From a virus (lineage: Duplodnaviria; Caudoviricetes), in the IMG/VR virus record IMGVR_UViG_3300017700_000715, positions 1 to 63,909 of that record: a stretch of DNA of 63,909 nucleotides. One strand, given 5' to 3'. This document shows, one piece after another, positions 24,257 to 46,204 of this stretch. The notes beneath the pieces were generated by a model. That model worked only from the letters and a program-made list of their open reading frames with translations. It did not search any database and was not told the origin of the DNA. How positions within the stretch are numbered: the first letter of the stretch is position 1; each line of letters begins with the position of its first letter. Both the position numbers and the translations under genes were made by a program.

Positions 24257-25762
24257 TTAAAACCAGCTTCTCACTGGACGACTCATAATCAAATCAGACA
24301 TGCTCTTCTTATTCCTGAGCACTTCCATGATGCGCTCATCCACAGTGTCAGGAGTCACTAGGTCGATATACGTCACTGGCTTGGTCTGTCCAATACGGTG
24401 TGCCCTATCTTCAGACTGCAACCTATGTTCCAAGTTGTAGCCATTAGAGTAGTAAATCACCAAATTGGCTTCAGTCCATGTGTTGCCATATCCTCCTGAT
24501 TGAGGATTAGCTACCATAAACCGCGACTGGTTCTCTTGTAAACAAGTTTCTTTGCCAATGACCTGATGATTTGCATCAAGAATGGGTCTCCAGCCTTTGA
24601 ACCTAAAGACACCATCATCCTTCTCAGCTGTTGATGCTCCTCCATGATATTCGGACACTGAGCCATGACCAAATTTGTCCCGGAGTATTTTGGCGACGTC
24701 TTTGAGAGTCTGGCGATATGTCGCCCAGATGATTACCTTACCTTCATAGTCTTCGAGAATATCTAGCAAGGTTGAAAGTCGCTCATTCTCAATTGAAGCG
24801 TATTGATCATCACCAATCTTAAGCTGTCCACAGACAATTTGATGCAGTTTAGTGATTTGAGACAACACATTGATGACTTCAATCTCTTTGCCTTCCAGCT
24901 CAAGAATAGCTTCATTCTTCAACTGAGTATATAAAGCTTCCTGTTTAGGTGTGAGAGGCACAACTCTCTGAGTGTAGATCTTTGGTGGAAGATCTAGACA
25001 TTGATCCTTAAGCAGTTGATGTGAGAAGGTCTTAACCTTCTGGGCCAGGTCTTCTAGGTTCCTGTAGCCCACCACCCTCTGAAAACTCCTGGATCCCAAG
25101 TATTCGATCTCTACAACACAATAATTATTACGGAAGGCAAAGTAACTACTAAAACCAAGCAATCCTTTGCCAAGCACCATTGACTGTCCCCACAAGTCCA
25201 TAGGCGCCTGGGTTACAGCCGTACCAGTCATGATCCGCTTGTAGGCGCTCTTGAAAGCCCAGACATAAGCTTCTTTGCTTCGTTTGGAGTCGTAGTGCTT
25301 TACACAGGTTGACTCGTCAACAATAAGCATCACACGCTTGTGTGCTTTATAAAACTGCTCTAGGACTTTGCTTCCACCAAAAGCCAATGACTCGATGTTA
25401 ACGACCAGAATGGGCAATCTATCGCGGCCAGTTCTAGTTAGAGATTTCATTGCATTCTTGAAAGCAACACTGCTTGCCTTCAAAGATGAAAAGAGCACTG
25501 TCTCTCGCTTGATGCGATCAGGTAGATGTGCTGGGATCTCATATCGAGTCCAGTTGGCATACTCACCTTTCTTGGCGGTAATTACAACTGCGTCAATCAT
25601 ATCATTCTCAAATAGATACCCAAAGGTATTGATAGCGATCCATGACTTGCCGAGACCCATCTCAATGAAATAAGCCCAAGCCTTTTTGTCCTTGGTTTCT
25701 TCAAAGACTTTGAGTTGGTTTTCATAGAAAGGTTGAGTCTTAAACTCGTACTTCTCAGTCAT
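24257..25762 (-). CDS. SNF2-like superfamily 2 helicase
   Basis: EMGLGKS, IVDES, MTGT, GGYGNT, QSEDRAHRIGQ. Confidence 0.9.
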   Translation of the reverse strand: MTEKYEFKTQPFYENQLKVFEETKDKKAWAYFIEMGLGKSWIAINTFGYLFENDMIDAVVITAKKGEYANWTRYEIPAHLPDRIKRETVLFSSLKASSVAFKNAMKSLTRTGRDRLPILVVNIESLAFGGSKVLEQFYKAHKRVMLIVDESTCVKHYDSKRSKEAYVWAFKSAYKRIMTGTAVTQAPMDLWGQSMVLGKGLLGFSSYFAFRNNYCVVEIEYLGSRSFQRVVGYRNLEDLAQKVKTFSHQLLKDQCLDLPPKIYTQRVVPLTPKQEALYTQLKNEAILELEGKEIEVINVLSQITKLHQIVCGQLKIGDDQYASIENERLSTLLDILEDYEGKVIIWATYRQTLKDVAKILRDKFGHGSVSEYHGGASTAEKDDGVFRFKGWRPILDANHQVIGKETCLQENQSRFMVANPQSGGYGNTWTEANLVIYYSNGYNLEHRLQSEDRAHRIGQTKPVTYIDLVTPDTVDERIMEVLRNKKSMSDLIMSRPVRSWF

Positions 25763-25853
25763 TTCGTGGATCCTGTGTAATCGGTGGATATCTACCGGTA
25801 TACCTTATATAGACAAGTCAATCCGGATTATCCGTTAAATTCTACATCTGACT

Positions 25854-25893
25854 CAAAAGAATAAGCCGACGGACACTTTTGCATCCGTCGGCT
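25854..25893 (-). terminator. Probable terminator after the ssDNA-binding-like gene
   Basis: agccgacgga/tccgtcggct stem then tattctttt on - strand. Confidence 0.6.
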
Positions 25894-25922
25894 CACAAGT
25901 CTACTCGATATTGAGCCGTCTA

Positions 25923-26744
25923 CTAGAACGGAATGTTATCATCCATTCCATCGCCACCACCAGACGCAACACCAACATCACCAGTGGTCGGTTCCGCGGA
26001 ACGCTTGACATCACCCGCTTCGATCAACTGATGGAACATCTTGGCCTGATCATAGACAGCCTTGTTGACGATGTCTCCCTTTTCGATGGACAACTGCCAC
26101 CAAGAATTGTTGGCCTTCTGCTCAAGCACCGTCCGAAGACGATAGGCATAAAGCCAACGAGGAGCGATCATCTCGGTCCCCGGAATACGGGTCGTGAGAA
26201 GCTCGTTGTTCCACCGACGATTGACCTTGAGGCCTGTCGACTTCAGAGTCGTAACGCACTGACCCCAGGCGTTAGTCTCCGGATCCTTGTAAAGACCGTA
26301 GTGGTAGGCAGTCTCAATCAACAGATTGCCATTGGGAAGGATAGGCTGCTTGCGATCGTTGGGCTTGGCCTGCTGACGAATGTCCGAGTCAATCGGATAT
26401 TCTGCAACCCAGCCACCGCCCTTGTCTCGATCAACCCACTCCACAAGCTTACGCTCATAGGCACAGTTGACAAAGATGATCCCTTCCTTGCGCGCCTCAA
26501 AGGTTTCAAGAGAGACGTTGTTGAAGAACATAGAGGCCTGAGCACCCTCGATATACTGAGGAGCACCAGGGTTAACCTGAGGCGAGAGCCCCTGGAGAAT
26601 GGCAATATACGGAAGAGCAACGTCTCCCGAGTCCATCTGAGAAACGCCCGCTCCAGCGTCCCTTTGTAGATCGGCAAGGTTCATTCCCTCAGGAAGCACA
26701 AGAGCCTTGGTCTCTGTCTTCGTAACTTCAGTCTTCGCAGCCAT
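25923..26744 (-). CDS. Putative phage ssDNA-binding/annealing protein
   Basis: LP.I.ILQ.LSPQV pattern; acidic DDNIPF tail; replication context. Confidence 0.55.
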   Translation of the reverse strand: MAAKTEVTKTETKALVLPEGMNLADLQRDAGAGVSQMDSGDVALPYIAILQGLSPQVNPGAPQYIEGAQASMFFNNVSLETFEARKEGIIFVNCAYERKLVEWVDRDKGGGWVAEYPIDSDIRQQAKPNDRKQPILPNGNLLIETAYHYGLYKDPETNAWGQCVTTLKSTGLKVNRRWNNELLTTRIPGTEMIAPRWLYAYRLRTVLEQKANNSWWQLSIEKGDIVNKAVYDQAKMFHQLIEAGDVKRSAEPTTGDVGVASGGGDGMDDNIPF

Positions 26745-26806
26745 TGGTATTCTCCATGATTAAACGCTGATTGTTTGTGGTTAGCGTCACACCACCTTCG
26801 TCGAGA

Positions 26807-27385
26807 TCAGGCTTTCTTCTTCACCTTTGGAAGGGTGATCTTAGCCTTTTCTCCAACAAATACCGTGAATAGATCAGGAAGCGCTGTGCCAGACTCAATC
26901 TGTTCCTTGGCCCAGGCTTTCAGTGTAGAATGATGCACGGACTCTTCAAGGGAGACATCAAAGCCTTCTTCCTTGAGACTGTCCATAAGATCTTTGGCGT
27001 CTTTACGAGCTTCTTCACCCTTGCCAAATGGGACCGTGACATCTGTCTTGATGAGTGGCCCATGGCCATTGTCTTCGAGCCACTTGTAAGCCAGCGGGCG
27101 GTTCTCAACTTTGATCGAAGCGCCATAGAACTTCTCAACCGAGATTGAGGCGCCATCTTCCAGCTTGAAGCTACGCATACCAAGCTCAAGCATGGCATTG
27201 GGAAGATCAACTTCAGAAATCTGACGAAATTTGGCGTTTAGCTCTTTAAGAGCTTCTTCGGCCTCTTCAATCTGACCAGCTAACGAGAGTTGTCGCAAAG
27301 CCAAATTAGAGATAGACATCAGTGAAGCGTCATCAGTCTTGATGTTCGCTGAGTCGGCAAGGGCTGCTTGGAGAACGTCGTCCAT
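26807..27385 (-). CDS. Conserved replication-module hypothetical protein
   Basis: LP.AM.E.G...F.LEDG, WL.DNG.G.LIK, VH..TLKAW motifs. Confidence 0.6.
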   Translation of the reverse strand: MDDVLQAALADSANIKTDDASLMSISNLALRQLSLAGQIEEAEEALKELNAKFRQISEVDLPNAMLELGMRSFKLEDGASISVEKFYGASIKVENRPLAYKWLEDNGHGPLIKTDVTVPFGKGEEARKDAKDLMDSLKEEGFDVSLEESVHHSTLKAWAKEQIESGTALPDLFTVFVGEKAKITLPKVKKKA

Positions 27386-27400
27386 GTCTATCCTCTCTGG

Positions 27401-27706
27401 TTAATTGACTCGTATCTTGATGGGTAGATAAACACGTTCGCGCCTCATCCACTTAAGGAGTTGCAGGTGTCCACCAAGATATTCTGAAACGATAGATGTG
27501 GCTAGACCGATGGCCACAGGATCTCCAGTTAATAGGAGATAATCTTCGAGTGCTATGTTACCAAGGTCTTCTCGGAGTTTGTCTACAGTAAACTCATACG
27601 AGAAATTAGTATCACCTGGTGGTAAAAGGGTGACAATATCACCAAACGACATGGCCGGAGCCAAGTCATGATTGGGCTGTTCTTGAATGACGTAGACTTT
27701 AGGCAC
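27401..27706 (-). CDS. Small Rossmann-like (CARF/SAVED-like) protein
   Basis: KVYVIQ...DYLLLTGDPVAIGLA...LLKW....Y.P; GAGGAG RBS. Confidence 0.5.
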   Translation of the reverse strand: MPKVYVIQEQPNHDLAPAMSFGDIVTLLPPGDTNFSYEFTVDKLREDLGNIALEDYLLLTGDPVAIGLATSIVSEYLGGHLQLLKWMRRERVYLPIKIRVN

Positions 27707-27730
27707 TTAAAAGTCTCCTCTCTGATATTC

Positions 27731-27759
27731 AATATAGACACATAGATCAAAACAGTACA
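27731..27759 (-). promoter_or_regulatory. Sigma70-like promoter
   Basis: TGTACT-N17-TATATT. Confidence 0.65.
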
Positions 27760-27783
27760 TTAGAGAATTAGCCAATGCTTGAT

Positions 27784-28203
27784 CTATTGTTCGCTAAGTA
27801 TTGCATTATAGATATCAGTCCATTCGTGATTTGCAAGGTTGTTAATGGCGCGGGGCTTAATAGATGTGACATCAACAACTATCCAATCCTTGTACATATG
27901 TCTTTGACTTTCTAGCAAGGTTTGGACATTGTAAAGCATCACCACATTAATGTCAAGCGCAAGAACCCATAAATTCTTGTACTCAGCATGTCGAGCTCTC
28001 TTCTTAAGCCAAGCCAACTGAAATGTCTCAAACTTCATTTCAGCTTTGCGAATAACCTTAGTCTCTATCCAGCCCTGCTTTCCCTTGATAGCATAAGAGA
28101 TATCAGGGGTCCCTGACTCGGTTGTATTCTCTACTCGTGAGTGATCACCCCAGAGTAGAAGTTTCTTCCTGACATGATTGCGATAGAATTCGGTTTCGTT
28201 CAT
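27784..28203 (-). CDS. PD-(D/E)xK nuclease (VRR-NUC/Holliday junction resolvase-like)
   Basis: RVEN....GTPDI......GWIETK...Q.AWL. Confidence 0.8.
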   Translation of the reverse strand: MNETEFYRNHVRKKLLLWGDHSRVENTTESGTPDISYAIKGKQGWIETKVIRKAEMKFETFQLAWLKKRARHAEYKNLWVLALDINVVMLYNVQTLLESQRHMYKDWIVVDVTSIKPRAINNLANHEWTDIYNAILSEQ

Positions 28204-28460
28204 TAGAATAGACTCAGTTGAACAGGTTTCTGGGGCTTTACTTTGGCTGCAACTTTAGTCTTTACTTCACGCTCACGCCCAATGCCTAGGTATTCACGTT
28301 CCTGTCGGCATTTTCGCAAGTAATCTTCCATCTTGCCTTCTTTTACAGCGACACACATTTCATGACAACCTTGCCCTATTCTTCCATCTTTATAATAAAT
28401 GTAGAAGAATTCAGCTCCGTTGGCTTTAACTATCTGTGCGTCAGAATAGACCTGTGACAT
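28203..28460 (-). CDS. Hypothetical protein ending in a clamp-binding motif
   Basis: C-terminus KPVQLSLF; start inferred at ATG 28460. Confidence 0.6.
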   Translation of the reverse strand: MSQVYSDAQIVKANGAEFFYIYYKDGRIGQGCHEMCVAVKEGKMEDYLRKCRQEREYLGIGREREVKTKVAAKVKPQKPVQLSLF

Positions 28461-30468
28461 GAGGAACAACCTCTCCCCAACTGGATCCAAAATCAGGTGA
28501 AGCATCAAATGGAATGGTCGTCTCAATAGCGTGCTCCATGATCTCTTGGGTCCTGATTAACTCATGATCACTGAAAACGGTTCTACCGAGCTCGTCGTAC
28601 ACTTGTACTTGGGGAGTAAGACCCTCACCATCAAGAAGAATGATGCACTTCTTAATCTGATCGGCGGCGGAACCTTGGACCAAAGCATTCAATGCCTTGT
28701 GTACCATGGCACGGGCCACATTCTCAGCACCCCACTTCTCACAAGCTTCTTCATATGTGGGAACGGGTTTATTCCAAATGAAGGCATTGTCATGTTTGTC
28801 GGGAGAATATGACTTCTCCCACATGCTGAACCGTCGCTTACGACCGAGAATGGTCATGATCCATCCACGCTTGGCGACCATCTCCATACACTTCTCTTCG
28901 AGCTTCTTGACGTAGGGCACACCGTCATGGTAGGCTCTAAAGATCTCGTCCGCGACCTTTCTTGTGAGGTTCAATTTCTTGGCAAGCTTAGCCTTGCCCA
29001 TACCGTAAGCAGATCCAAGGTTAATGTCCTTGGCATTGCGCCGACCGATATCTTTACCTGACTTGTCCTTGACAAGATCAGCCGTCATCTGGTGATAGTC
29101 AATCTTGGGATTGTCGAGATACTTCTGTCGAGCCTCGGCTGCACCTGGTAAATCTAGCAAATAGGCGTAATGCAAGAGGATCCGAGGTTCTTGCTGGCTA
29201 TAGTCCCACTTGCCCCACTTTCCACCTTCGTCTGGTATGAATAGAGACCGGACCTTTTTGCCCCACAAAGGTGAACGCGTCGGAATGTTTGTGAGATTTG
29301 GCTTAGATGACGCAATACGACCTGAACGAGTGCCTTTGCTCTTGCCACCATCTTCATCTTCTTCCATGGCACGTAATTGATGCCAATTAGGATGAAGACG
29401 ACCTTTGACATTCTTCTCAAGGATCATGCCCTCAACGAAGTCGCACCGGATCTTATGAAGTGTACGCCATTCGTTGAGTTGCAGACAAAATGGATCAGTC
29501 TGAATTTCAAGCCAATCACCATTGACCGATAGATTGTACTCACCAGTTTTCTGATTGATGGTGCCGGTCGTGGGAAGTTCTAGACCACGAGCTTGGAGAG
29601 CTGCTATAAGGTGTTTGTTAGAGCCGAGATTGATCCGGTATCCAGCCATATCGGCGAGGACATCATAGATTGAGTCCTCAGCAGATTTCATCTCGTTGCT
29701 GAGTTGCTCAGCACGGTCCAAATCTACTCTAATTCCACGAAGGCGCATTTTGAATAGAATAGGCTGAAGCTGCTGCTCCAACAAGAAGATGTCCCAGACT
29801 TCATCAGCCTTTAGAGCCTGTTCTTGCTCAAGGAAGATCATGACTGGGTTTTCAGCGTCATCTTCAGCATATTCACCAACGTATTCTGATGGCAAATACT
29901 TCATATGCTTTTTTGGATCCGCTCCATAACAGGCTGCGGCTTCTCGAAGCTTTGCTTCATTCTTGCCGTATCCTAGGTAATCTTTAGAAAGCACATCAAG
30001 GCTATAACCATCAGCCTTTTCTTCATTGAGCAATGGCTCCGCGACCTGAATATCACAGAGATCACCAAAGATCGGGATATCAAGTGAGTTTAACGCTTCA
30101 AGTTCATAGGTAAGATTTGCGCCGCATTTCGGCTGCCTTGCATCTTTGAGATGATGCTTGATATATGACACGACTTGGCTCTTGTCAAGGTTTCCCGAGA
30201 CATGGCCAAATGGCAGATATATCTTACGGCTGTTTTCATCAGCCATTGAGATGCCAATGACTTCAGCATCTCCACGAATAAAACCCGGACCTTGTTTGTC
30301 AAGGTTTGGGTCGTTTGTTTCAACGTCGATGCCGATATATTCGGACCTAGAGAAGTCAGGCCACTGCGTAGAGTCAGTGGGTACCTGCCAAGTCTTATCA
30401 GGTGTAAACATAGGAAGTTGGTTTACGTCACTGATGGTTTTGGATCCACGTCTTCCGGGTCTACGCAT
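28441..30468 (-). CDS. Family A DNA polymerase with 3'-5' exonuclease domain
   Basis: IDVET exonuclease I; SGRIASSKPNLTNIP; DYSQQEPR (A); RRNAKDINLGSAYG (B); QVYDEL (C). Confidence 0.92.
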   Translation of the reverse strand: MRRPGRRGSKTISDVNQLPMFTPDKTWQVPTDSTQWPDFSRSEYIGIDVETNDPNLDKQGPGFIRGDAEVIGISMADENSRKIYLPFGHVSGNLDKSQVVSYIKHHLKDARQPKCGANLTYELEALNSLDIPIFGDLCDIQVAEPLLNEEKADGYSLDVLSKDYLGYGKNEAKLREAAACYGADPKKHMKYLPSEYVGEYAEDDAENPVMIFLEQEQALKADEVWDIFLLEQQLQPILFKMRLRGIRVDLDRAEQLSNEMKSAEDSIYDVLADMAGYRINLGSNKHLIAALQARGLELPTTGTINQKTGEYNLSVNGDWLEIQTDPFCLQLNEWRTLHKIRCDFVEGMILEKNVKGRLHPNWHQLRAMEEDEDGGKSKGTRSGRIASSKPNLTNIPTRSPLWGKKVRSLFIPDEGGKWGKWDYSQQEPRILLHYAYLLDLPGAAEARQKYLDNPKIDYHQMTADLVKDKSGKDIGRRNAKDINLGSAYGMGKAKLAKKLNLTRKVADEIFRAYHDGVPYVKKLEEKCMEMVAKRGWIMTILGRKRRFSMWEKSYSPDKHDNAFIWNKPVPTYEEACEKWGAENVARAMVHKALNALVQGSAADQIKKCIILLDGEGLTPQVQVYDELGRTVFSDHELIRTQEIMEHAIETTIPFDASPDFGSSWGEVVPHVTGLF

Positions 30469-30962
30469 CAGGTTTTCATCCGCTCTTGCTTAATTCGTTC
30501 CATCAATTCAATGGTGAATTGAGATTGAAAATGTTCCCAAGTTCTTCTTTTGCCTTGTGCACCAAGCCATAACACCTTAGACTCGTTGTGTGGATATTCT
30601 TCAAGAAACACAATCCGTTCACAACCTGTATTCAGTAGCGACTTGATGCATTGCATGCATGGCGAGGCTGTGCAATAACATGTCCTAATATCTTCGACAT
30701 CATGGCATTGCACAAGGGCATTCATCTCAGCATGAGAAGCTAGACAAGCATCCAATCCACTACCAGAAGGCAGATCAGCACCAGGACACTTATGATCAAT
30801 ACAATGTCTAACACCTCTTGGCACTCCATTCCTACCCACACCAATGATGTGGTTAAGATGATTGGTCAGGACACAGCCGACCATACGCCGAAAGCAGGTT
30901 GAACCTGCTCCGGCGATAATGGCTTGCGACATAAAGATCTCATCATTATGCATTCGCTGCAA
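30468..30962 (-). CDS. dCMP deaminase family protein
   Basis: STC.RR.VG, G.NG.P.G, HAE.NA, SPC..C; start uncertain (TTG 30962 or ATG 30953). Confidence 0.88.
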   Translation of the reverse strand: MQRMHNDEIFMSQAIIAGAGSTCFRRMVGCVLTNHLNHIIGVGRNGVPRGVRHCIDHKCPGADLPSGSGLDACLASHAEMNALVQCHDVEDIRTCYCTASPCMQCIKSLLNTGCERIVFLEEYPHNESKVLWLGAQGKRRTWEHFQSQFTIELMERIKQERMKT

Positions 30963-31749
30963 GACGAAAGCCCTCCACAACACCATCACCTTTGGCGTGA
31001 CCCCAAAGCCAATGGATCAGATGCTCAGGTTCACCAAACCAGTCCAGCGGATCAAAGGCGGGATATGCCGCTGGCATGAAATCATCGGCAAGAATGAGCT
31101 TGACCTTCTCAAGGTTTGACTCATACAGATGCTGAGAACCTGCCGTCAACGTGATGTTGCCCAACTTCACAGTGAGACCAAGGTGGCGAAGATAAAGCGC
31201 CAAATACCCCGACAACATCGAGAAGTTAAAGATGTCATAAGGCCAGCCAAGGTAGGCATCAGACGACCGCATGGTGTCAAAGCAATAAAGCACACCATCT
31301 CGAATGAGCCACTGAACAGAGATAGTGCAAGGTACATCCTTGGTCTTGGGTGGGTTCTCACGCCAGATATTGATGACGGCTTGACGACTGCTTGGATCCT
31401 CTACCAAAGCTCGTGCAACACCGGCAATCTGGTCAACGATCTTAGGTCCGTAAGACCCAAAGAACCTGATACCATCATCACTGAACTTGGAGATCTCTTT
31501 GCTGAATGGAGCAATCTGATCGACCTTGTTGTCTCCAGACAGGATCCAGGCAGCCTCCGCTGCCATGAACTTGTAGCCAATCTTTCGGAAAGGCATGGTC
31601 ATAATGGGGTAAGCCATATTGACCTTGGACTGATATCCCATCATCTCGAGACAGGGCAGTCCACGGGGCGCCGTCTTGTTGCCATACTTGACGATGTCAC
31701 TGGCAACAGACAGCCAGGCTTGGTTGGCAGTGTAGGCTGGCTTAAACAC
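30946..31749 (-). CDS. Divergent thymidylate synthase homologue, likely dCMP (hydroxy)methylase
   Basis: SRQAV..IW, DVPCT, MRSSD..LG.PYD, S.HLY; Asp in place of the ThyA specificity Asn. Confidence 0.8.
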   Translation of the reverse strand: MFKPAYTANQAWLSVASDIVKYGNKTAPRGLPCLEMMGYQSKVNMAYPIMTMPFRKIGYKFMAAEAAWILSGDNKVDQIAPFSKEISKFSDDGIRFFGSYGPKIVDQIAGVARALVEDPSSRQAVINIWRENPPKTKDVPCTISVQWLIRDGVLYCFDTMRSSDAYLGWPYDIFNFSMLSGYLALYLRHLGLTVKLGNITLTAGSQHLYESNLEKVKLILADDFMPAAYPAFDPLDWFGEPEHLIHWLWGHAKGDGVVEGFRLAANA

Positions 31750-32698
31750 TGGCGAGTCCTTTCAAGAACATAAGATCGTCTAGCTCTTTGGGAGCAAACC
31801 GACGATACCACTGAGGATGTTTTATCATGTCATGATCGATTTGGAAACGATTAAGTGCAGCAGAAGCACTGTGACCAAGGGCTACAACTGAAGATGGTTG
31901 AAGTTCGTCAACATATCTGTCAAGTGGAACTTGAATACCCTCAGGAGCATGAGCATTTGCCCACGCAAGTTTGTCTTCACCGATACCCAATTCAGCTAGG
32001 GCATTAGTGATCCACAGTGAGCTATTGCCATACTCGAAGAATGGCCACACCTCACGACGGGTCTTAGGATTGCTCTGGTCACCCACCAACAGTATCTTGG
32101 GCTTCCAGCTATTGCCGGCTACAAGCCTGTTCTTGGGATCTTCCCACTCTGGGGCGACAAGATCGGTGACAGAAAAGGCATGATCAAGCAGCCACCGACA
32201 GTAATCATCGAGAAATCTTCCATGGGTGTCAAGGTCGTAGTGGACAGCATCAAATCTCGGCCCAAGCGACTTGTAGAGTTCGGCATACCCATCATATACA
32301 CCTTGCATGGTGGTGTACATTTCATCACGAGACTCCTTGAGTTTCTCGAAGCGCTCATAATATGCCTTCTGATCCGACGGGATACAGAAGACATAGGTCA
32401 CACCATGTTTCAACCCGACCCGATCAAGCATGCGACCACCGAGAGGCCATTTGCTGCCTCCTCGAAACACATCTGCATAGATCTTTTCTGAAGCCCACCA
32501 ACGATCCAGAATGACTGGTTGGTGTTGAGCATACTTAAGACAAAGTTCAATTGCTGCTGTGTGGTAATCAAACATACGATCTTTAAATCTATATGTTAAA
32601 TGAATATATTTTGAGTTTCCAAAATATTCAGCTAATTTATTACAGAGCGTTGTTTTGCCACTTCCATCTGGACCTTCCACGCAGATTATTGGATGCAT
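31742..32698 (-). CDS. dNMP kinase fused to a UDG-superfamily-like domain
   Basis: EGPDGSGKTT and LDR at N-terminus; ILLVGDQSNP...PF...N...VALG...HPQ at C-terminus. Confidence 0.72.
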   Translation of the reverse strand: MHPIICVEGPDGSGKTTLCNKLAEYFGNSKYIHLTYRFKDRMFDYHTAAIELCLKYAQHQPVILDRWWASEKIYADVFRGGSKWPLGGRMLDRVGLKHGVTYVFCIPSDQKAYYERFEKLKESRDEMYTTMQGVYDGYAELYKSLGPRFDAVHYDLDTHGRFLDDYCRWLLDHAFSVTDLVAPEWEDPKNRLVAGNSWKPKILLVGDQSNPKTRREVWPFFEYGNSSLWITNALAELGIGEDKLAWANAHAPEGIQVPLDRYVDELQPSSVVALGHSASAALNRFQIDHDMIKHPQWYRRFAPKELDDLMFLKGLASV

Positions 32699-33327
32699 TT
32701 GTTCATTTCCTCTCTTAGCTCTGAAGATAGAGACGATTTAAGTGGATACTTAGCTCGCCAAGCCATAGCCTTTATAGCTCTGTCTTTCTTGTATTTTAAA
32801 CTGCTAAACTGATTATAATACAAAAACCATAGTAAATAAGCTGCCGTTTCACCCGCTAATCTAGCGTATAGTATGGTTTTTCTAGGAACAATGGTAGGTG
32901 ATTTTAATCCAAGATTTTCTACAAAATCCCTGAATTTATCTATGTCTTCTTTTCTCCCACATAAATTCATATGAGGACCTGCATTATCATAAGCTACTAT
33001 ACAACCATCTCCATCTATCATTCCTCTCCAAAAATGCTTACTTATATAGATATCATCTCTGATTTCATTCTTAAGACCTAATTTTATTAGATTGGGTTGA
33101 GAAGTACCTATGGAAAACACTTCTTGAATTCCATAGGTACTTGATTTTACTGCGTGCGCTACGTTATCTTTTCCAATATAATGAGCAAACGCTTCAACGG
33201 GCTCCTTGTGTTTCTGAGCAAAATACAAGGTTCCATTTGATGATATGTGACCGTCAGCTTGAAGATAACCAAGCCAATACAAGTCTTCATCAGATAATGG
33301 ATCGTTAAATCGTTTTATAGCACTCAT
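32686..33327 (-). mobile_element. Free-standing double-motif LAGLIDADG homing endonuclease gene
   Basis: YWLGYLQADG and FWRGMIDGDG; visibly AT-rich compared with flanks. Confidence 0.82.
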
Positions 33328-33611
33328 CGTTTCGTTCGTTCCGTCCCGAATTCAGTTTCCAAGAGAAGCATATAATGCTCCTCATATTTGGCGCGCTTTT
33401 CTGCGTCGCATGTCTGCATTACCTTAGACGCCAATCGTGCCGTCACGACTAATGCTGCTCTGTCGCAAAGAAAATATGACCCAGCTAAAAGGCCCAAAGC
33501 CTTAAACATCTGCTCCACAATTTCAGTGAGAACTTCTTCATGGGCTGACTCAGACTTACGGTTGCATTGGCACAGAAAAGCCGAGTCTTCAGTTTTGATT
33601 GGCGTGGACAT
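33324..33611 (-). CDS. Hypothetical protein
   Basis: ORF coupled to both neighbours. Confidence 0.45.
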   Translation of the reverse strand: MSTPIKTEDSAFLCQCNRKSESAHEEVLTEIVEQMFKALGLLAGSYFLCDRAALVVTARLASKVMQTCDAEKRAKYEEHYMLLLETEFGTERTKR

Positions 33612-34095
33612 TGTCTTTCACCAGGTCACTGTGATCGGGGGCAGTCCATCCTTCGGGTTTGACCACATCGTAGGCCGAGCCACGCTTGCTGTCAGAGATC
33701 TTTGCAACCCGCACCTTGGCCATATTGGCGGCATGCACACGATGCCAGGCTTCCTTGAAATCAAAGCCATGAATGTGTGAAGTGCCCAATACAACGTACA
33801 CTAAGTCAACGAGACCGTCAAGCATTTCCTCAAGGTGCTTGGCCACTTTCTCTTGGTCAAGCTTCTCCAGTCCCAACTCGAACTGGAGGCTGACAGCGTG
33901 GTCCTCGTACTCCCGCAGCTCCTCCTTCATGAAGTCGCGACGGAACCTCGAGAGTTCGGGCTCAAGACTCCGGGGTTTTCCGTCGTACTCGAGACCAAAC
34001 TTCTTGTGAAATTCCTCGATGTCCTTGACAGGGTCAAAGGGTTTGCCGTAAGGCGCCGTCATCGCTTCTATGTAGATATCCCTCTCTTCGCTCAT
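33589..34095 (-). CDS. MazG-like/all-alpha NTP pyrophosphohydrolase
   Basis: EFH.KFG, EEL.E, D.LVDLVYV..GT, VH.ANMAK, KPEGW.AP. Confidence 0.82.
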   Translation of the reverse strand: MSEERDIYIEAMTAPYGKPFDPVKDIEEFHKKFGLEYDGKPRSLEPELSRFRRDFMKEELREYEDHAVSLQFELGLEKLDQEKVAKHLEEMLDGLVDLVYVVLGTSHIHGFDFKEAWHRVHAANMAKVRVAKISDSKRGSAYDVVKPEGWTAPDHSDLVKDNVHANQN

Positions 34096-34107
34096 GATAG
34101 TCTCCTG

Positions 34108-34410
34108 TTACTTTAATTGTTGATGCCAGGTTTTCAAACGCATAGCTTTTGATTTCGCTCTATCCATGATCGCTTGTCTATCGAGTCCAAAATGATCTAT
34201 GTTCAGCTCTATATTTGCTAGAACGTCGGCCATTTCTTCTGATAACCAAACATGATTTATTTTACCTGTCTCTGGATCCCGTTCATCAATGCCTTGGATC
34301 ATGCATCTCGCAGCAGCTGAACCACATTCGTTAAGTTCTTCTAACAATTTTCCCAGATGCTTGAGATTTATTGGAGAAACGTCAGGATGCCACGGATCAT
34401 TATCAGACAT
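34108..34410 (-). CDS. Second MazG-like pyrophosphohydrolase
   Basis: KLLEELNE...EEMADV pattern. Confidence 0.6.
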   Translation of the reverse strand: MSDNDPWHPDVSPINLKHLGKLLEELNECGSAAARCMIQGIDERDPETGKINHVWLSEEMADVLANIELNIDHFGLDRQAIMDRAKSKAMRLKTWHQQLK

Positions 34411-34421
34411 GGATGCAATCC

Positions 34422-35393
34422 TTAGTTGTTGTGCTGCGGGTAACCTTCATAGGAGGCAAGCTGCTCCCACTTCTCAGAACTTGTCCAAGGCTTGGAAACC
34501 TCAGACAAGGGCTTGAACTTTCGGGCGTAATTGTCCTTGGCAAGTTTCAAGATCCAGATATTGTTGCGGGCATAGGCCGGCATCAATGGAGCAAAGATGG
34601 TCGCCAGAACATTGGTATCGTAGTACTTGTAGAGGCGTTCATACACCTCCTTACTGCCGGGGATCTCCTTGAACATTACGTCCCGGTAATCTCGTATAGA
34701 GGCGAACGTGCCATAATTCTCGGCAATCTCGAAGCCAAGATCCTCGATCATCGCGCCGAGTGCATCACGCTTCATCTCGTTGACATGGTTATCGGCGGCG
34801 CCAACGGACGAGTCATAGCAAGGCGTTGAGATAAACGCGACAGAGTCCTCACCATGATGGGCCTTGGTCTGCTCCATGATGAAGCCCATCTTGTTGAGCA
34901 TGGCCCGAGCATGGCTCGGCTCTACATGCTCAAGCACTTCAAAGCAGGTAATGATGTTCGGGAGATCGTGCTCGCCTTCTTCGACATCGCCGTCGATATA
35001 GAGAACCGGCTTGACGGTGTCATCGATGATCTCGGGCTGACGGACAAGCACCTGCTTGGAGGCGAAGTCGACGGAGCCATAAGCGGACAGCGGGAACTTG
35101 CCCTTGCTGAACATGTCCGTCTTGAACTTGGCCGATTTGTTGTAGTCAAGGCCGATGTAGTCCGCGACAATGAAACGGTTCGAGTAGAGCATCTTGGCAA
35201 GGGGCATGTCGACGCCGCAGCCAATGTCGAGGACTCGTGCGGTCTGATACCGGCCACTTGTGCCCAGTTTGCGGGCCACGTGTGTCCAACGGAAAACGTG
35301 TGCGATATAGTCGCGATGTATCATAATCCGTTCTTCCGCGGTATCAATCGACAGGTGTGTGTTGTCGATGCTCTTGCCTCGAACATTGGCCAT
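34422..35393 (-). CDS. Class I SAM-dependent methyltransferase
   Basis: VLDIGCG, YIGLD, FEVLEHVE, FISTP; no DPPY/NPPY or motif IV-type PC context of DNA methyltransferases. Confidence 0.8.
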   Translation of the reverse strand: MANVRGKSIDNTHLSIDTAEERIMIHRDYIAHVFRWTHVARKLGTSGRYQTARVLDIGCGVDMPLAKMLYSNRFIVADYIGLDYNKSAKFKTDMFSKGKFPLSAYGSVDFASKQVLVRQPEIIDDTVKPVLYIDGDVEEGEHDLPNIITCFEVLEHVEPSHARAMLNKMGFIMEQTKAHHGEDSVAFISTPCYDSSVGAADNHVNEMKRDALGAMIEDLGFEIAENYGTFASIRDYRDVMFKEIPGSKEVYERLYKYYDTNVLATIFAPLMPAYARNNIWILKLAKDNYARKFKPLSEVSKPWTSSEKWEQLASYEGYPQHNN

Positions 35394-35434
35394 ACTGAAA
35401 TCCTCAATTTTGATGGAAAAGCGTTACAATCTCC

Positions 35435-35463
35435 ATAATAGAGGATTATCTAGCTAAAGTAAA
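35435..35463 (-). promoter_or_regulatory. Promoter for the methyltransferase/nucleotide operon
   Basis: TTTACT-N17-TATTAT. Confidence 0.7.
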
Positions 35464-35488: not shown

Positions 35489-35516
35489 AAAGAAAAAGGG
35501 CGCCGAAGCGCCCTCT
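35489..35516 (-). terminator. Rho-independent terminator
   Basis: agggcgc-ttcg-gcgccct followed by a U-rich tract on - strand. Confidence 0.8.
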
Positions 35517-35518
35517 TA

Positions 35519-35809
35519 TCATCCAACAAAAATGCATTGACCTGTATATTTTCCTTCATCATCACAGGTTAGTGAAATTTTGATTTTGCAGTGACTGAAA
35601 TGGTCTCCACGACCAAAAATATCGCCAACAAATTTAAGAGCTGATTTTTGAGAAACCTCGATGAGGCAGGACATATCGTTATAGCCTCTCTGCTCTTCAA
35701 CATTGCTGTAAAGAAATGTTCCGCCGCGAACAAAATGCGTAACACCAGCGCGATAAGAACGCTTGATGAGCTTGATGGCTTCTTCCTGGGTGACGTAATG
35801 ATCGATCAT
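35519..35809 (-). CDS. Hypothetical early protein
   Basis: ATCAACCACGGAG leader/RBS before ATG 35809; own promoter and terminator. Confidence 0.65.
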   Translation of the reverse strand: MIDHYVTQEEAIKLIKRSYRAGVTHFVRGGTFLYSNVEEQRGYNDMSCLIEVSQKSALKFVGDIFGRGDHFSHCKIKISLTCDDEGKYTGQCIFVG

Positions 35810-35834
35810 GGTGTGTCTCCGTGGTTGATGATCC

Positions 35835-35863
35835 TTTGTAGAGTGTCCCAACGGAGAAGTAAA
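35835..35863 (-). promoter_or_regulatory. Early-type promoter
   Basis: TTTACT-N17-TACAAA followed by the conserved leader. Confidence 0.55.
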
Positions 35864-37875: not shown

Positions 37876-38571
37876 ATGCAAACCTATGAGGAGCGACCCT
37901 CAGGTCAATGGGTCGTGGTGCTTTTCCCACAGAACAAAATCAAGGATTATTCGGACGTTCGCCTGTTTCCGACCATGGATGCTGCGACGAACCGATATGC
38001 CAAGGCTACCCGGACTCAGCACATCTACTCCAGCCCCGGAGAGATGGTGCATCGCCACGGTGGTCCGGTGCTTCACAAGTTTCTCGTGGATCTGGTCGAG
38101 CAATATGACCGACCTGCTGAGCGCTACAAGACTTGTGAAATTGGTGATGGCGAATTGATCGCGAACACCGAGATCCACTCCAGCAAACGAACTGAAGTGG
38201 CCGATGAGCTTTGGCGTGTGTGCCAACTCATTGGAGACAAGACTCTTGGTATCGTCTCAAGCGGTGATGACGACGACAAATTTAAGATCCGCATCGATCG
38301 TATGACGACGCCTGAAGGTCGTGAGATCTGGAGCAAGTTCCCCAAGCAGGCACGTCAGATCATCGAAGCGTTGATCACAAATGCCAAGTCCATTATGACT
38401 GAGTCTGAACTCCAGAAGCTTGTTGCCAAGCTTGTGGCTGATCGAGTGATGAAGACCAAGCAGGATCCATGGAGGATCTTTGCTTATTATGCCCCAATGT
38501 TTGGTGATCATGCCTTGCTGTATTACCCGGGGAAGCGCCACAAACTAGAAGACCATGAAGACAATATCTGA
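37876..38571 (+). CDS. Hypothetical protein with C-terminal winged-helix-like paralogue 3
   Basis: PKQARQIIEAL...KTKQDPWRIFAYY. Confidence 0.65.
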   Translation: MQTYEERPSGQWVVVLFPQNKIKDYSDVRLFPTMDAATNRYAKATRTQHIYSSPGEMVHRHGGPVLHKFLVDLVEQYDRPAERYKTCEIGDGELIANTEIHSSKRTEVADELWRVCQLIGDKTLGIVSSGDDDDKFKIRIDRMTTPEGREIWSKFPKQARQIIEALITNAKSIMTESELQKLVAKLVADRVMKTKQDPWRIFAYYAPMFGDHALLYYPGKRHKLEDHEDNI

Positions 38572-38593
38572 GCCACGGCTCTGAGGGTCTATA

Positions 38594-40840
38594 ATGTCAA
38601 ATAAGCAGATAACCTGCGAAGAGATTGCGGTCAGTCTCGGGGGCGGTAAGGAAAAGCGAAATGGCGATGGATCATGGAATACCCGGTGTCCGGCCCATCA
38701 TGATGACGGCCCATCACTTTCAGTAAGTGAGAAAAACGGCAAGATCCTTGTGCGTTGCCATGCTGGCTGCACACAAGACGCCGTCATCAGTGCGTTACGT
38801 GAACGAGGCCTGTGGGTTGCCAAAACCAAGACGTGGACATCCAAGCCATTTGCGCCAAAGGGTTCAACGCCGCCAACGGCTATGGACCATCCCAAGTATG
38901 GCAAGGCCTCCAATAGCTGGGTTTATCGAAACCGCCAAGGCCTGATCGCCGGTATCATTTGCCGGTTCAACTACCAAGATGGTGACAAGCTCCGTAAGGA
39001 GATCTTGCCCATGACGTGGTGCATGTCCGACGAGGGCGAGCATCGTTGGTGGTGGAAACAGATGGCGGAACCTCGATGCCTCTACAATGAGCATCGACTG
39101 GATGAGCATAAACCCATCCTCATTGTCGAGGGCGAGAAGGCCTGTGATGCAGCCCAGAAAATCGTGGGCGATCAATATCTCTGCATGACATGGCCAGGTG
39201 GTAGTAAAGCCGTCAAACGGGCTAACTGGAAGCAGTTGGTCAATCGTGACATTATCATCTGGCCTGATGCTGATGAGCCCGGAGATATGGCGGCAAGATG
39301 GCTTGCTGAGATCCTGATCGAGGAAAATGCCCGATCAATTCGTCGTGTGATGCTACCTGAGGGATTGCCTGAAGGTTGGGACATTGCTGACGAGATGCCT
39401 GCGGGCCTTACATTTGACCCCTTAACACTTATTCGTACTGCGCCATCATACAAGCCTCAAGGCGACTCGGTCGTTGAGAAGTTCAATCGTGAGTTTGCGC
39501 TCGTCATGATTGGTGGCCAAGCCGTGGTCCTCCAGGAGGAACGCAAATACAGTGATGGTAAGGTGGATCTCAAATATCTGTCCGTCACAGCCTTCAAGGA
39601 GTTTTACGGAAATCGGCAGGTCATACAAGGCAAGCAACAGATACCGGAAAGCTCATATTGGATTAAGCACGAAGAACGGAGATCATATACCTCCGTCGTG
39701 TTCGAGCCAAACAGTAATAATAAGCAGGCGTATAATCTATGGCGGGGTTTCTCTTGTGAGGCTGATCCCACTGGAGATTGGTCACTTCTTGAGAACCACA
39801 TCGAAGAGAATTTGGCCCGAGGAGATCAATCTTTAGCTCACTGGATCATGGGATGGTTTGCGCACATTGTGCAACACCCAGATGAGAAGGTTGGTACATC
39901 TCTCGCGTTCCGAGGAAAGCAGGGCACAGGCAAGACGATCATTGGCAAAGCCATGGGTGCACTATATCGCCCACATTATGTCTTGGTTGAAGACTCTCGA
40001 TATGTGCTGGGCAACTTCAACAGCCACATGGCGTCAACTCTATTGCTTCATGCTGACGAAGCATTCTTCGCTGGTGATCCAAGACACGTCGGGCGACTAA
40101 GAGGTATGGTCACGTCCGACAGTCACCGGATCGAGATGAAGGGCAAGGACTCCTTCGAAGTCAACAACTATATGAGGCTCTTGGTCACCTCGAACAATGA
40201 CTTCATTATGCCTGCTGCCTTCGAGGAAAGACGGTTCGCGGTTCTGGATACAGGTGAAGGCCGAATTCAGGACAAGAACTATTTCAAGGCGATGTGGAAG
40301 CAGCTAGAGAATGGTGGCTTCGGTGGATTGCTTCATCATCTACAATCATTTGATCTTTCAAATGTAGACATTGGCGTCATTCCAGTCACAGCTGCTCTTC
40401 AAGAGCAAAAGCTATTCAGCCTTGACGGCGTCATGCGTTTCTGGTTTGAACGGCTATGGCAAGGTCAGGCCTTGCCTCATCTTGAGAAAGACCTATGGCC
40501 TGACTTCATAGCCGTTGAAGATATCTACGACGCTTATCTGAAGCGGTCAGAAGCCTGGGGTGAACGTCGTCGCGTGGACATTCCGACCTTTGGGAAGGAG
40601 CTCAAGAAGATCTGGCCCGGTACCGTGCTCAACAAGAAGCGTGTCAGGATCAAGCGTATGGATCGCTATGGACAGCTCAATGAGCAAGAAGTAATGGCCT
40701 ACAAGCTTGACCACCTGTCAATCCATCGCAAATGCTTTGCAGAGATTTGTGGCGCTGTTGATTGGCCAGCAGAGGGTGAAGAGGCTCCTGATCTTCCTAA
40801 GTTCAAGGAGACTGAGAAGCAGGATGATGTTCCATTTTAG
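38594..40840 (+). CDS. Primase-helicase (zinc finger, TOPRIM, SF3-like P-loop helicase)
   Basis: CPAH.D..PSLS...CHAGC; IVEGEKA...WPGG...WPDAD; GKQGTGKT, ADEA, TSN. Confidence 0.88.
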   Translation: MSNKQITCEEIAVSLGGGKEKRNGDGSWNTRCPAHHDDGPSLSVSEKNGKILVRCHAGCTQDAVISALRERGLWVAKTKTWTSKPFAPKGSTPPTAMDHPKYGKASNSWVYRNRQGLIAGIICRFNYQDGDKLRKEILPMTWCMSDEGEHRWWWKQMAEPRCLYNEHRLDEHKPILIVEGEKACDAAQKIVGDQYLCMTWPGGSKAVKRANWKQLVNRDIIIWPDADEPGDMAARWLAEILIEENARSIRRVMLPEGLPEGWDIADEMPAGLTFDPLTLIRTAPSYKPQGDSVVEKFNREFALVMIGGQAVVLQEERKYSDGKVDLKYLSVTAFKEFYGNRQVIQGKQQIPESSYWIKHEERRSYTSVVFEPNSNNKQAYNLWRGFSCEADPTGDWSLLENHIEENLARGDQSLAHWIMGWFAHIVQHPDEKVGTSLAFRGKQGTGKTIIGKAMGALYRPHYVLVEDSRYVLGNFNSHMASTLLLHADEAFFAGDPRHVGRLRGMVTSDSHRIEMKGKDSFEVNNYMRLLVTSNNDFIMPAAFEERRFAVLDTGEGRIQDKNYFKAMWKQLENGGFGGLLHHLQSFDLSNVDIGVIPVTAALQEQKLFSLDGVMRFWFERLWQGQALPHLEKDLWPDFIAVEDIYDAYLKRSEAWGERRRVDIPTFGKELKKIWPGTVLNKKRVRIKRMDRYGQLNEQEVMAYKLDHLSIHRKCFAEICGAVDWPAEGEEAPDLPKFKETEKQDDVPF

Positions 40841-41102: not shown

Positions 41103-42011
41103 TTAGACAGCTACAGGTGCTTTAATTGCAGCGTGACTCTCATAGCCAATAAGCTGAATATCATCTAACCCAAAATCCCAAACATTCTTAACGCTGTTTT
41201 CACCTGTATAGATAAACAGCTTAGGAAAATCTAGTGGCGCACGTTTGAGTTGTTCTTCAGCAGCATCCATATGATTATTGTAGAGATGTAGATCACCAAA
41301 GGTGTGAATAAAATCTCCAACCTTGAGACCACATACACCGGCCATTAGGTGTGTAAGCAATGCATAGCTGGCAATATTGAATGGCACTCCAAGTAAAATG
41401 TCAGCTGACCGCTGATACAAATGACATGAGAGCTTCCCATTTGCCACAAAGAACTGAAACAGGCAATGGCATGGGTGCAGCGCCATGTCGTCGTTCCATG
41501 CTGGGTTCCAAGCCGTTACAACATTACGTCGTGAATTTGGATCCTTTTGTATCAGCTCTTGAGCAATAGCCATCTGATCAATATGACCACCACATCCTTC
41601 TCGTTCTGGAAAACGACGCCATTGCGCTCCATATACAGGTCCAAGATCACCATAGCTTGGTTCAATATCTCGATCAATTAGGCCTTGCTCAAATTCCCTA
41701 ATCGACAGCTTTTGACCTGTTGACCTATTAAATTCAGCTAGTGGCCAGTCGGACCAGATTGATACGCCCTGCTTGATCAGTGGAATGATGTTGGTCTCGC
41801 CACGAAGCATCCAAAGCAATTCGGCGACCACGCCCTTCCAAAACACTTTCTTGGTGGTCAGGAGCGGAAACCCCTGTTGAAGGTCGAAACGCATCTGGGC
41901 TCCGAAGATGCCTCGCGTTCCGGTGCCGGTGCGATCACCTCTCTCAGCAACGTCTGTTCCATAACGAAGCCGACGGAGCAAGTCAAGATACTGATGTTCT
42001 GGGTGTCTCAT
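41103..42011 (-). CDS. thyA: Canonical thymidylate synthase
   Basis: [52 protein letters not shown]. Confidence 0.95.
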
Positions 42012-43184: not shown

Positions 43185-43499
43185 CTAGTCCACACCCCAT
43201 TGCTTGTAAAGAGCTTGAAGGTTCTCACCAGTCTTCTTGGCTTGTTCTCGAGCCGTAGCTCTCATGTACCAGCGCTTCTTCTTGAATTTGATGGACTCAG
43301 CGTTCACATGGTAATAGCGCTTCTTTCGCTGAGCCTGGGCCTTACGATGATTGATCACTACGCCTGGGGCTATAGTACTTTCATAGGTCGTGAAACGCTT
43401 CTTACAGACAAGACACTCACGTCGACGTCTGAATACATTATCGGGTGCCTGACGTGAGTCAAGCACCCGGGTCTCTTCATTGCATGATGTGCACTTCAC
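43185..43499 (-). CDS. NrdR-like zinc-ribbon protein without an ATP-cone
   Basis: MKC..C....RVLDSR......RRRREC..C..RFTTYE. Confidence 0.8.
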
Positions 43500-44741: not shown

Positions 44742-44852
44742 GTAAAGAGAATAGTCATGTCTGTCTCGAGCTGATCGTTGTTGAAATCCTTAGCTCGAGA
44801 TATCCAGACGATTGTCATCATCATGGAAAACAGACAGAGGACTATTTTCATG

Positions 44853-45122: not shown

Positions 45123-45123
45123 G

Positions 45124-46178: not shown

Positions 46179-46204
46179 GGTCAGTCTCCGCTCTTGATAT
46201 AAGC

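Follow-up and report, generated by a model that had tools for sequence, protein, structure and literature searches.

A phage gene run predicted to make 5-hydroxymethyl-dCMP carries an S-adenosylmethionine methyltransferase in the tailoring position

The 63,909-bp stretch of phage DNA that was analysed here as a whole (IMG/VR record IMGVR_UViG_3300017700_000715; Duplodnaviria, Caudoviricetes; hereafter the window) carries on its minus strand a run of genes encoding a class I S-adenosylmethionine (SAM) methyltransferase, two MazG-like pyrophosphatases, a fusion of a deoxynucleoside monophosphate (dNMP) kinase with a domain resembling uracil-DNA glycosylase (UDG), a homologue of thymidylate synthase (TS), a dCMP deaminase and the DNA polymerase Pol A (Table 1). 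We propose, with a probability of about 0.5, that this phage replaces cytosine by a C5-modified cytosine in the manner of phage T4, and that the SAM methyltransferase takes the place of the T4 glucosyltransferases and methylates the modified cytosine. The system is a variant of the known scheme of hydroxymethyl-pyrimidine hypermodification. The fuller version of the proposal, in which 5-hydroxymethylcytosine (5hmC) takes the place of cytosine in tailed phages of a widespread group and a virus-specific methyltransferase clade caps its hydroxyl with a methyl group from SAM to give 5-methoxymethylcytosine, is put forward tentatively, at a little short of an even chance. An earlier note made from the letters of this DNA (the original prediction) had described a cytosine-modification pathway with a methyltransferase and without a glycosyltransferase; this interpretation is partly supported, in that the dCMP-type pathway and the co-occurrence of its genes in relatives were both recovered.

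The predicted activity of the TS homologue rests on three active-site positions, 143, 169 and 177 in the numbering of Escherichia coli ThyA, which were read by a published rule (PMC13326640). According to this rule, Asn at position 177 goes with dUMP and Asp with dCMP, position 143 is Leu in the methyl-forming ThyA and acidic in the hydroxymethylases T4 gp42 and MilA, and position 169 is Asn in the 5-hydroxy-dCMP synthases (PMC13326640). In the alignment, the window TS homologue reads D/D/D at 143/169/177, exactly as does T4 gp42, while the separate ThyA of the window reads L/D/N, the 5-hydroxy-dCMP synthase RB69 gp48 reads E/N/D, and the sole TS homologue of Xp12, a phage with fully 5-methylcytosine (5mC) DNA, reads N/D/D. 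Position 177 lies in the WPYD of the homologue, which aligns with FRND of T4 gp42, VPFN of ThyA and the corresponding Asp of MilA. With Asp at both 143 and 177, the homologue fails the canonical ThyA signature (Asn177/Leu143), and the Asn at the position of ThyA Asp169 that marks enzymes of the RB69 gp48 type is not found in it either, the residue being the Asp of MRSSD. The catalytic Cys (ThyA Cys146) is aligned in DVPCT, the closest PDB structure is the CMP 5-hydroxymethylase MilA (E 2e-25), and the homologue is 21% identical to T4 gp42. Since the signature is D/D/D as in T4 gp42, and differs from N/D/D in Xp12 and E/N/D in RB69, the predicted product is 5-hydroxymethyl-dCMP rather than 5-methyl-dCMP, and the TS homologue is predicted to be a dCMP hydroxymethylase for which both 5-methyl and 5-hydroxy chemistry are disfavoured. 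The motifs on which the original prediction was based (DVPCT...MRSSDAYLGWPYD in the homologue, HPCH in ThyA) are exact, and the Asp that it had placed opposite ThyA Asn177, as the mark of a dCMP-type enzyme, is seen in the alignment; of the two products that it had offered, 5-hydroxymethyl is kept and 5-methyl is disfavoured.

The homologue might instead be a dCMP methyltransferase as in Xp12, with 5mC in the DNA and with or without a further methyl group from SAM, and this we regard as improbable. Asp177 suits any dCMP-specific enzyme, and the TS homologue of Xp12 (MT664984) likewise has a MazG-like gene and a dCMP deaminase as neighbours. Position 143 nevertheless separates the enzymes, as it is Asp in the window (in KDVPC), in T4 gp42 and in MilA, Asn in Xp12 and Leu in ThyA, and an acidic residue there accompanies hydroxymethyl products (PMC13326640). 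Xp12 further differs from the window in having a dihydrofolate reductase (DHFR) gene, and neither the methyltransferase nor the kinase has a counterpart in it at E ≤ 1e-3. Asn143 may be a mark of dCMP methyltransferases, Xp12 being the one sequence examined. The region 44377-46980 of Xp12 holds a run of DHFR, dCMP deaminase, TS homologue and a gene annotated as HAD hydrolase, part of which matches the MazG of the window (43% identity over 70 residues).

If cytosine is replaced as proposed, the MazG enzyme or enzymes would convert dCTP to dCMP, by analogy with T4 gp56, and the TS homologue would, going by its active-site signature, convert dCMP to 5-hydroxymethyl-dCMP. The kinase domain would phosphorylate this product, the host nucleoside diphosphate kinase would complete 5-hydroxymethyl-dCTP, and Pol A would incorporate it, while the dCMP deaminase and ThyA, as their families suggest, would keep up the supply of dTTP. 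The methyltransferase would then methylate the modified cytosine, either as a nucleotide or in DNA, its likeliest target being the hydroxymethyl oxygen, which would give 5-methoxymethylcytosine. The UDG-like domain, judged by its UDG-type motifs, would most likely remove uracil (or 5-hydroxymethyluracil, 5hmU) let into the DNA by a high flux of dUMP. As the original prediction had noted, the TS homologue is accompanied by a kinase, dNTP pyrophosphatases, a dCMP deaminase and a separate ThyA, an arrangement as in T4, whose 5hmC pathway likewise combines a dCTP-removing pyrophosphatase (gp56), a D/D/D TS homologue (gp42), a dNMP kinase (gp1), a deaminase (cd) and ThyA (td). Unlike T4, the window has a MazG-type pyrophosphatase, a kinase joined to a UDG-like domain and a polymerase of family A, and instead of α- and β-glucosyltransferases, of which the window has none, a SAM methyltransferase occupies the tailoring position. 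By the same analogy, the MazG protein of 168 residues is presumed to be the dCTPase. The second, of 100 residues, had no tblastn match in 84 loci, the closest relative (L005, whose methyltransferase is 92% identical to that of the window) included, and appears from its sequence to be a genome-specific extra pyrophosphatase, situated between the methyltransferase and the conserved MazG.

We infer from synteny that the modified base is methylated by the methyltransferase. In 80 methyltransferase-anchored loci, the best of 190 IMG/VR stretches encoding a relative, tblastn detected MazG (78 loci), a TS homologue (70), the kinase (67), the deaminase (65) and Pol A (59, directly after the deaminase). 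In L081 the TS homologue lies upstream and was recognised by Pfam (E 8.1e-15), which brings the loci with a D/D/D TS homologue near the methyltransferase to 71/80; among the remaining nine, eight have at most 1601 bp of downstream sequence, and L080 has only 176 bp upstream. All neighbouring TS homologues carry D/D/D (75/75; the 74 found by tblastn represent 70 distinct sequences). The five among 50,697 phage records that encode the methyltransferase (AXL3 twice, PW916, MW202510 and MW202621) are all among the seven best matches to the TS homologue. Co-occurrence of the methyltransferase with the cluster in relatives, the lack of which the original prediction had named as refuting it, was thus found both in the metagenomic loci (71/80) and in the phage records (5/5). 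In the reverse direction, the methyltransferase was present in 65 of 80 TS-anchored loci, the best of 440 from the first clade described below, and seven of the others have too little upstream sequence.

The neighbouring TS homologues fall into three clades, the first comprising the enzymes of the window, AXL3 and Pelagibacter phages, the second those of L038, L040, L048, L049 and L053-L055, and the third those of L018, L041 and L081. The third clade is sister to T4 gp42, its members being 43-49% identical to gp42 and 22-25% to the window enzyme, while the methyltransferases found beside all three clades are 44-49% identical to that of the window. In L018, L038, L041 and L081 the methyltransferase adjoins MazG, a D/D/D TS homologue and the deaminase, with neither Pol A nor the kinase nearby. 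Because the methyltransferase keeps this degree of identity beside all three clades, the TS homologue must have been exchanged while the methyltransferase, MazG and the deaminase stayed, which argues for a functional link of the methyltransferase to hydroxymethyl-dCMP production rather than for mere co-inheritance. The association with hydroxymethyl-forming TS homologues of three clades also points to the oxygen of the 5-CH2OH group as the acceptor, and the hydroxyl is the acceptor in the general rule for phage pyrimidine hypermodification (PMC13326640).

The methyltransferase itself is modelled with a predicted local distance difference test (pLDDT) score of 90.6 as a class I Rossmann fold. 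It has 1064 relatives at E ≤ 0.001, and in an alignment of 48 sequences the mean column identity is 49%, the LDIGCG motif is invariant in all 48, and many polar residues besides those of the SAM motifs are invariant as well. The best VIA fold match is ChlM (Z 17.8, root-mean-square deviation 2.7, 191 residues aligned); among the others are the E. coli SAM methyltransferase 4htf (Z 17.1), toxoflavin N-methyltransferase (Z 16.0) and indolethylamine N-methyltransferase (Z 15.2), and the list also contains Hen1, cap N7 methyltransferase and UbiG. The list given by Foldseek is similar. Against the PDB, the sequence matched only a leucine carboxyl methyltransferase, at an uninformative E of about 0.3. 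None of the DNA methyltransferase families (C5, N4, N6) matches the protein, its only Pfam match at E ≤ 0.01 being PF13489. The resemblance to small-molecule and RNA methyltransferases does not exclude an action on DNA. A report of methylated 5hmC in phage DNA, or of a function for this methyltransferase, was not found in a literature search, which left most subscription journals and supplements outside its reach.

Cultured and sequenced relatives show that the gene order is shared by phages of other virion types. Stenotrophomonas phage AXL3, Pseudoxanthomonas phage PW916 and the Manatee Spring contigs MW202510 and MW202621 have, like the window, the order methyltransferase, MazG, kinase (with or without UDG), TS homologue and deaminase, at 30-44% identity to the window for the methyltransferase and 40-48% for the TS homologue, but, unlike the window, they are siphoviruses or podoviruses and are annotated as having an ordinary thymidylate pathway. 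The virion DNA of AXL3 was not cut by 35 of 37 restriction enzymes, and the only two that cut it, TasI and Tru1I, have sites composed of A and T only (PMC7504290), a pattern that fits a replacement of cytosine. The available part of the PW916 paper reports no test of restriction resistance.

Several observations weigh against the view that the methyltransferase acts on hydroxymethylated cytosine of the phage. Eight of the TS-anchored loci lack the methyltransferase despite at least 3.25 kb of upstream sequence, as do the Pelagibacter phages HTVC200P and HTVC119P, so that the methyltransferase is to be seen as an add-on and not a requirement. Neighbouring replication genes are common to 41-50 of the 80 loci, and much of the co-occurrence could be due to inheritance as a block; moreover, the methyltransferase- and TS-anchored sets of loci overlap in contigs. 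The fold matches of the methyltransferase are generic, being enzymes of small molecules and RNA, and do not tell O-, N- and C-methylation apart, and the protein has no recognisable DNA-binding or DNA-methyltransferase feature. On the side of the predicted hydroxymethylase, position 143 is described as only correlated with the product (PMC13326640), and the reading of N/D/D in Xp12 leans on the known 5mC DNA of that phage. The AXL3 authors conclude that G or C is modified and do not identify the base (PMC7504290), and DNA of T4gt and Xp12 resists 81.9% and 89.9% of type II enzymes, respectively (PMC7653180), so that the resistance of AXL3 needs nothing beyond plain 5hmC or 5mC. Finally, about 45 open reading frames (ORFs) of the window belong to no family and may hide an unrecognised transferase. 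The use of the AXL3 pattern as an argument for a base bulkier than 5hmC was rejected, given that DNAs with plain 5hmC or 5mC resist 82-90% of enzymes.

Part of this evidence suits an alternative that we hold to be unlikely, in which the DNA contains plain 5hmC and the methyltransferase has some other substrate, such as RNA, a protein, a host metabolite, a nucleotide signal or a bacimethrin-like small molecule. It draws on the inheritance of adjoining replication genes as a block, on the small-molecule or RNA-like fold without a DNA-binding domain, and, as weak evidence, on a search of 1414 candidates that turned up no methyltransferase fused into a longer protein. In Clostridium botulinum, bacimethrin is made by BcmA-D, which comprise a CMP hydroxymethylase of TS type, a glycosidase, a SAM methyltransferase and a kinase. 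Compared by enzyme type only, the window has the same set, with a predicted TS-like cytidylate hydroxymethylase, a putative enzyme of N-glycosidic bonds, a SAM methyltransferase and a kinase. Bacimethrin is, however, a free pyrimidine antivitamin made from CMP, whereas the genes of the window belong to a phage replication module that also holds Pol A, a deaminase and a MazG of dCTPase type, and the virion DNA of the relative AXL3 is modified (PMC7504290). Against plain 5hmC also stand the four loci in which the methyltransferase has stayed with MazG, a D/D/D TS homologue and the deaminase although the TS homologue is of another clade, the five phage records, none of which has the methyltransferase without such a TS homologue, and the ESM Atlas neighbours of the methyltransferase, which are 95-100% viral clusters and carry no functional name.

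Alternatively, 5hmC might be made and the methyl group placed on another atom, such as N4 or N3, so that a doubly modified base other than 5-methoxymethylcytosine would result. This we consider doubtful, and distinctly unlikely. The synteny speaks for it as much as for methylation of the hydroxyl, and the fold neighbours of the methyltransferase include N-methyltransferases (those of toxoflavin and indolethylamine) beside O-methyltransferases. By contrast, the protein matches no Pfam family of DNA amino-methyltransferases, the sole NCBIfam match, although weak (E 1.2e-4; 21.5 bits with a cut-off of 103), is to the O-methyltransferase UbiG, and methylation of the hydroxyl is the simplest explanation for the strict link to three hydroxymethyl-producing clades, in line with the rule for hypermodified pyrimidines (PMC13326640).

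The step between the predicted hydroxymethylase and the polymerase is assigned to the kinase-UDG fusion, which is previously undescribed. The dNMP kinase-UDG fusion named in the original prediction is real, since its AlphaFold model, built with 45 homologues, has a pLDDT of 95.6, and the matches of its N- and C-terminal halves are to kinases and to family 4 UDG and UdgX, respectively. The kinase part contains a GPDGSGKTT P-loop, reaches 29 bits with PF02223 (cut-off 27), and matches YorR (2axp) in a profile search against the PDB (E 8.5e-14, positions 5-172); Foldseek returns YorR as well, and thymidylate kinases. Thymidylate_kin matches 34 of the 45 homologues and PF03167 (UDG) six, at best with E 1.4e-07, while the window protein itself has no PF03167 match at E ≤ 0.01. 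Its UDG part was instead detected by Foldseek, with UdgX (6iod_B, E 5.3e-06) and Thermotoga maritima UDG (1l9g, 7.6e-06), and by a profile comparison with the UDG TM0511 (E 3.2e-4, positions 169-287). In the alignment of this part, G206 is invariant and followed by D or E, and P219-F220, N248 and H294-P295 are invariant or at least 90% conserved; these columns we take to be UDG motif A (G-E/D), the stacking Phe, the base-reading Asn and the His-Pro of motif B. Canonical family 4 UDGs hold a 4Fe-4S cluster by four cysteines. Among the invariant and near-invariant columns of the alignment there are no conserved cysteines for such a cluster, and the domain is therefore called UDG-like and not a canonical member of family 4.

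The fusion is optional, as the UDG part is present in 51 of the 80 loci and the kinase in 67, the kinase of MW202510 is unfused and the glycosylase gene lies elsewhere, after the primase, and the database contains some 20 kinase-only homologues of 180-202 residues. In relatives without the methyltransferase, e.g. Pelagibacter phage HTVC200P, the minimal conserved pair is the kinase and the TS homologue, and a cognate dNMP kinase is what brings modified dCMP into DNA (PMC13326640); for both reasons the kinase domain is read, by analogy, as a putative 5-hydroxymethyl-dCMP kinase. Low identity of the kinase tracks a missing UDG fusion and not a missing methyltransferase, so that divergence of the kinase was rejected as a sign that the methyltransferase precedes it in the pathway. 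The UDG-like domain probably clears uracil or 5hmU from DNA, by analogy with the UDG-Pol A fusions of SPO1-, SP-15- and YerA41-type phages, for which clearing of uracil from DNA is the proposed role (PMC13697223). There, too, phages with modified pyrimidines have a UDG domain fused to an enzyme of replication or nucleotide metabolism, but the partner in the window is a dNMP kinase, and the earlier work concerns genomes with modified T (PMC13697223). Bacillus phage G (JN638751) encodes a full-length kinase-UDG-like fusion (gp315, 230933-231871; 23% identity over 96% of the query) and, about 1.6 kb away, a TS homologue (gp319, 233487-234218; 34% identity), while a homologue of the methyltransferase was not found in it. 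Since phage G has the fusion, the fusion is not confined to the methyltransferase-bearing group.

The pairing of a kinase with a glycosylase-like domain could also be taken as a sign of thymidine hypermodification, in which 5-hydroxymethyldeoxyuridine would be formed and then acted on by a DNA kinase and a glycosylase-like transferase, both contained in the P-loop/UDG-like fusion. Phages of the M6 and ViI types have the pair 5-HMUDK and aGPT-Pplase, to which a P-loop kinase joined to a base-flipping type of fold is superficially similar. This explanation is hardly credible, as position 177 is Asp, and not Asn, in all 75 TS homologues, a separate canonical ThyA is present, no aGPT-Pplase is found among 25 of the 29 families listed for the 45 fusion homologues, and the cutting of AXL3 DNA solely by enzymes with A/T-only sites speaks against a modification of T (PMC7504290).

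Returning to the proposed capping of 5hmC, a Pfam scan of the complete genome, which covered 104 non-overlapping ORFs of 45 residues or more and two alternates (106 in all), showed no family of glycosyltransferases, carbamoyltransferases, TET/JBP, aGPT-Pplase or radical-SAM enzymes, in agreement with the original prediction, which had seen neither a glycosyltransferase nor a TET/JBP gene. The nearest parallel for a non-glycosyl transferase is the carbamoyltransferase system found by MetaGPA, in which uncultured phages combine a TS-homologue dCMP hydroxymethylase with a transferase that yields 5-carbamoyloxymethylcytosine, and whose function was first deduced from co-occurrence as well, in a study with 110 associated Pfam families (PMC8670742); the transferase of the window, unlike that of MetaGPA, is a SAM methyltransferase. 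The 5-hydroxycytosine pathway of RB69, DLP3 and RL38JI similarly uses an Asp177 TS homologue and a cognate dNMP kinase to obtain a hydroxylated dCMP that is then decorated, but these phages have Asn169 and arabinosylate or glycosylate the base (PMC13326640), whereas the window enzyme is D/D/D.

The genome is complete, being assigned by IMG/VR to the class of direct terminal repeats with 100% completeness and bearing an exact direct terminal repeat of 123 bp (1-123 and 63787-63909), and no near-identical DNA was found in the phage collection. Scans with PHROG and Pfam indicate that the phage has a contractile tail, with structural genes like those of Pam3/E217 encoded on the plus strand, and a long minus-strand block of replication and nucleotide-metabolism genes. 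All the genes named in the original prediction were found at the positions it gave, on the minus strand, by ORF, Pfam and PHROG analysis, but the LAGLIDADG endonuclease and a 95-residue ORF within the run had been overlooked, and the co-oriented run is longer than was described, reaching from about 37627 down to 24257. The LAGLIDADG gene is free-standing, with the MazG genes on one side of it and the kinase gene on the other. Most other loci, L005 among them, lack it here, and relatives of it occur at other places in L006, L007/L008 and L016; it is probably a mobile insertion into the modification operon. The single promoter of the original prediction corresponds to a candidate site ahead of the methyltransferase gene, directly after a terminator-like hairpin that closes the upstream gene (35519-35851), and a promoter is plausible here on sequence grounds; promoter-like sites are nonetheless no commoner in the region than in shuffled sequences (16 versus 12.3 ± 3.7). 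A replication block (24257-28203, minus strand, and 37876-40840, plus strand) travels with the cluster in 19-50 of the 80 related loci and comprises a 139-residue PHROG 2165 protein after Pol A, Pam3 gp32/gp33/gp34-like proteins, an SNF2 helicase, a 231-residue ORF and a primase. In the early or replication region, 43185-43499 (minus strand) encodes a 104-residue protein with an NrdR-like zinc ribbon (PF22811, E 3.7e-14), a possible regulator of the nucleotide-metabolism genes. At the other end of the genome, 154-645 (plus strand) is a tail-fibre-like ORF (PHROG 38670) with a sub-threshold match to a GDSL lipase/acylhydrolase-like domain (PF13472, E 2.1e-06), possibly a receptor-modifying esterase.

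Table 1. Features of the gene run and of the separate ThyA in the window, with the evidence for each
Feature	Position	Strand	Evidence or remark
Terminator-like hairpin	35494-35517	-	10-pair stem, 6 of the pairs G-C, then a run of T; closes upstream gene
Promoter-like site, TTTACT-17-TATTAT	35435-35463	-	Consensus scan, 9/12; ahead of methyltransferase gene
Class I SAM methyltransferase, 323 residues, candidate tailoring enzyme	34422-35393	-	PF13489, 44.4 bits (cut-off 27)
Small MazG-like nucleoside triphosphate (NTP) pyrophosphohydrolase, 100 residues	34108-34410	-	PHROG 4856 only, E 3.7e-13; no Pfam match
MazG/PRA-PH-type NTP pyrophosphohydrolase, 168 residues	33589-34095	-	PF01503, 41.7 bits (cut-off 21.3); PHROG 671, E 3.5e-26
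ORF of 95 residues	33324-33611	-	No Pfam or PHROG match; tblastn match only in L005
LAGLIDADG homing endonuclease	32686-33327	-	PF14528, 31.3 bits; PHROG 4645, E 5.9e-16
Kinase-UDG-like fusion protein	31742-32698	-	dNMP kinase, about residues 1-185 (nt 32144-32698); UDG-superfamily domain, about residues 186-318 (nt 31742-32143)
TS homologue, predicted dCMP hydroxymethylase	30946-31749	-	PF00303, 83 bits (cut-off 24.3)
dCMP deaminase	30468-30989	-	PF00383, 54.7 bits; HAE and PCxxC zinc motifs in the translation
Pol A, family A DNA polymerase	28441-30468	-	PF00476, 181 bits
Canonical ThyA, dUMP to dTMP	41103-42011	-	PF00303, 339 bits; signature L/D/N

Hypermodifications of phage DNA decide the outcome of defence based on restriction, CRISPR and glycosylases, cause failures of sequencing and cloning, and supply tools for epigenetic chemistry. 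The tailoring known for 5-hydroxymethyl- and 5-hydroxy-pyrimidines consists of sugars, amino acids, polyamines and carbamoyl groups. A SAM-dependent methyl cap would, if true, be a new and minimal chemistry and the cheapest known way of masking 5hmC from restriction enzymes that recognise it, and 5-methoxymethylcytosine would be a DNA base for which no report was found. The methyltransferase group spans no fewer than 190 IMG/VR contigs and roughly a thousand protein clusters, with phages of myo-, sipho- and podovirus types, among them AXL3 and PW916; although abundant in metagenomes, the family is annotated plainly as "methyltransferase" in an "ordinary thymidylate pathway". The question is directly testable, since both AXL3 and PW916 are cultured phages and the DNA of AXL3 resists restriction. 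Even if the methyltransferase were to have another role, a widespread "thymidylate synthase" would be reclassified as a predicted dCMP hydroxymethylase, and the fusion of a dNMP kinase with a UDG-like domain would still be new.

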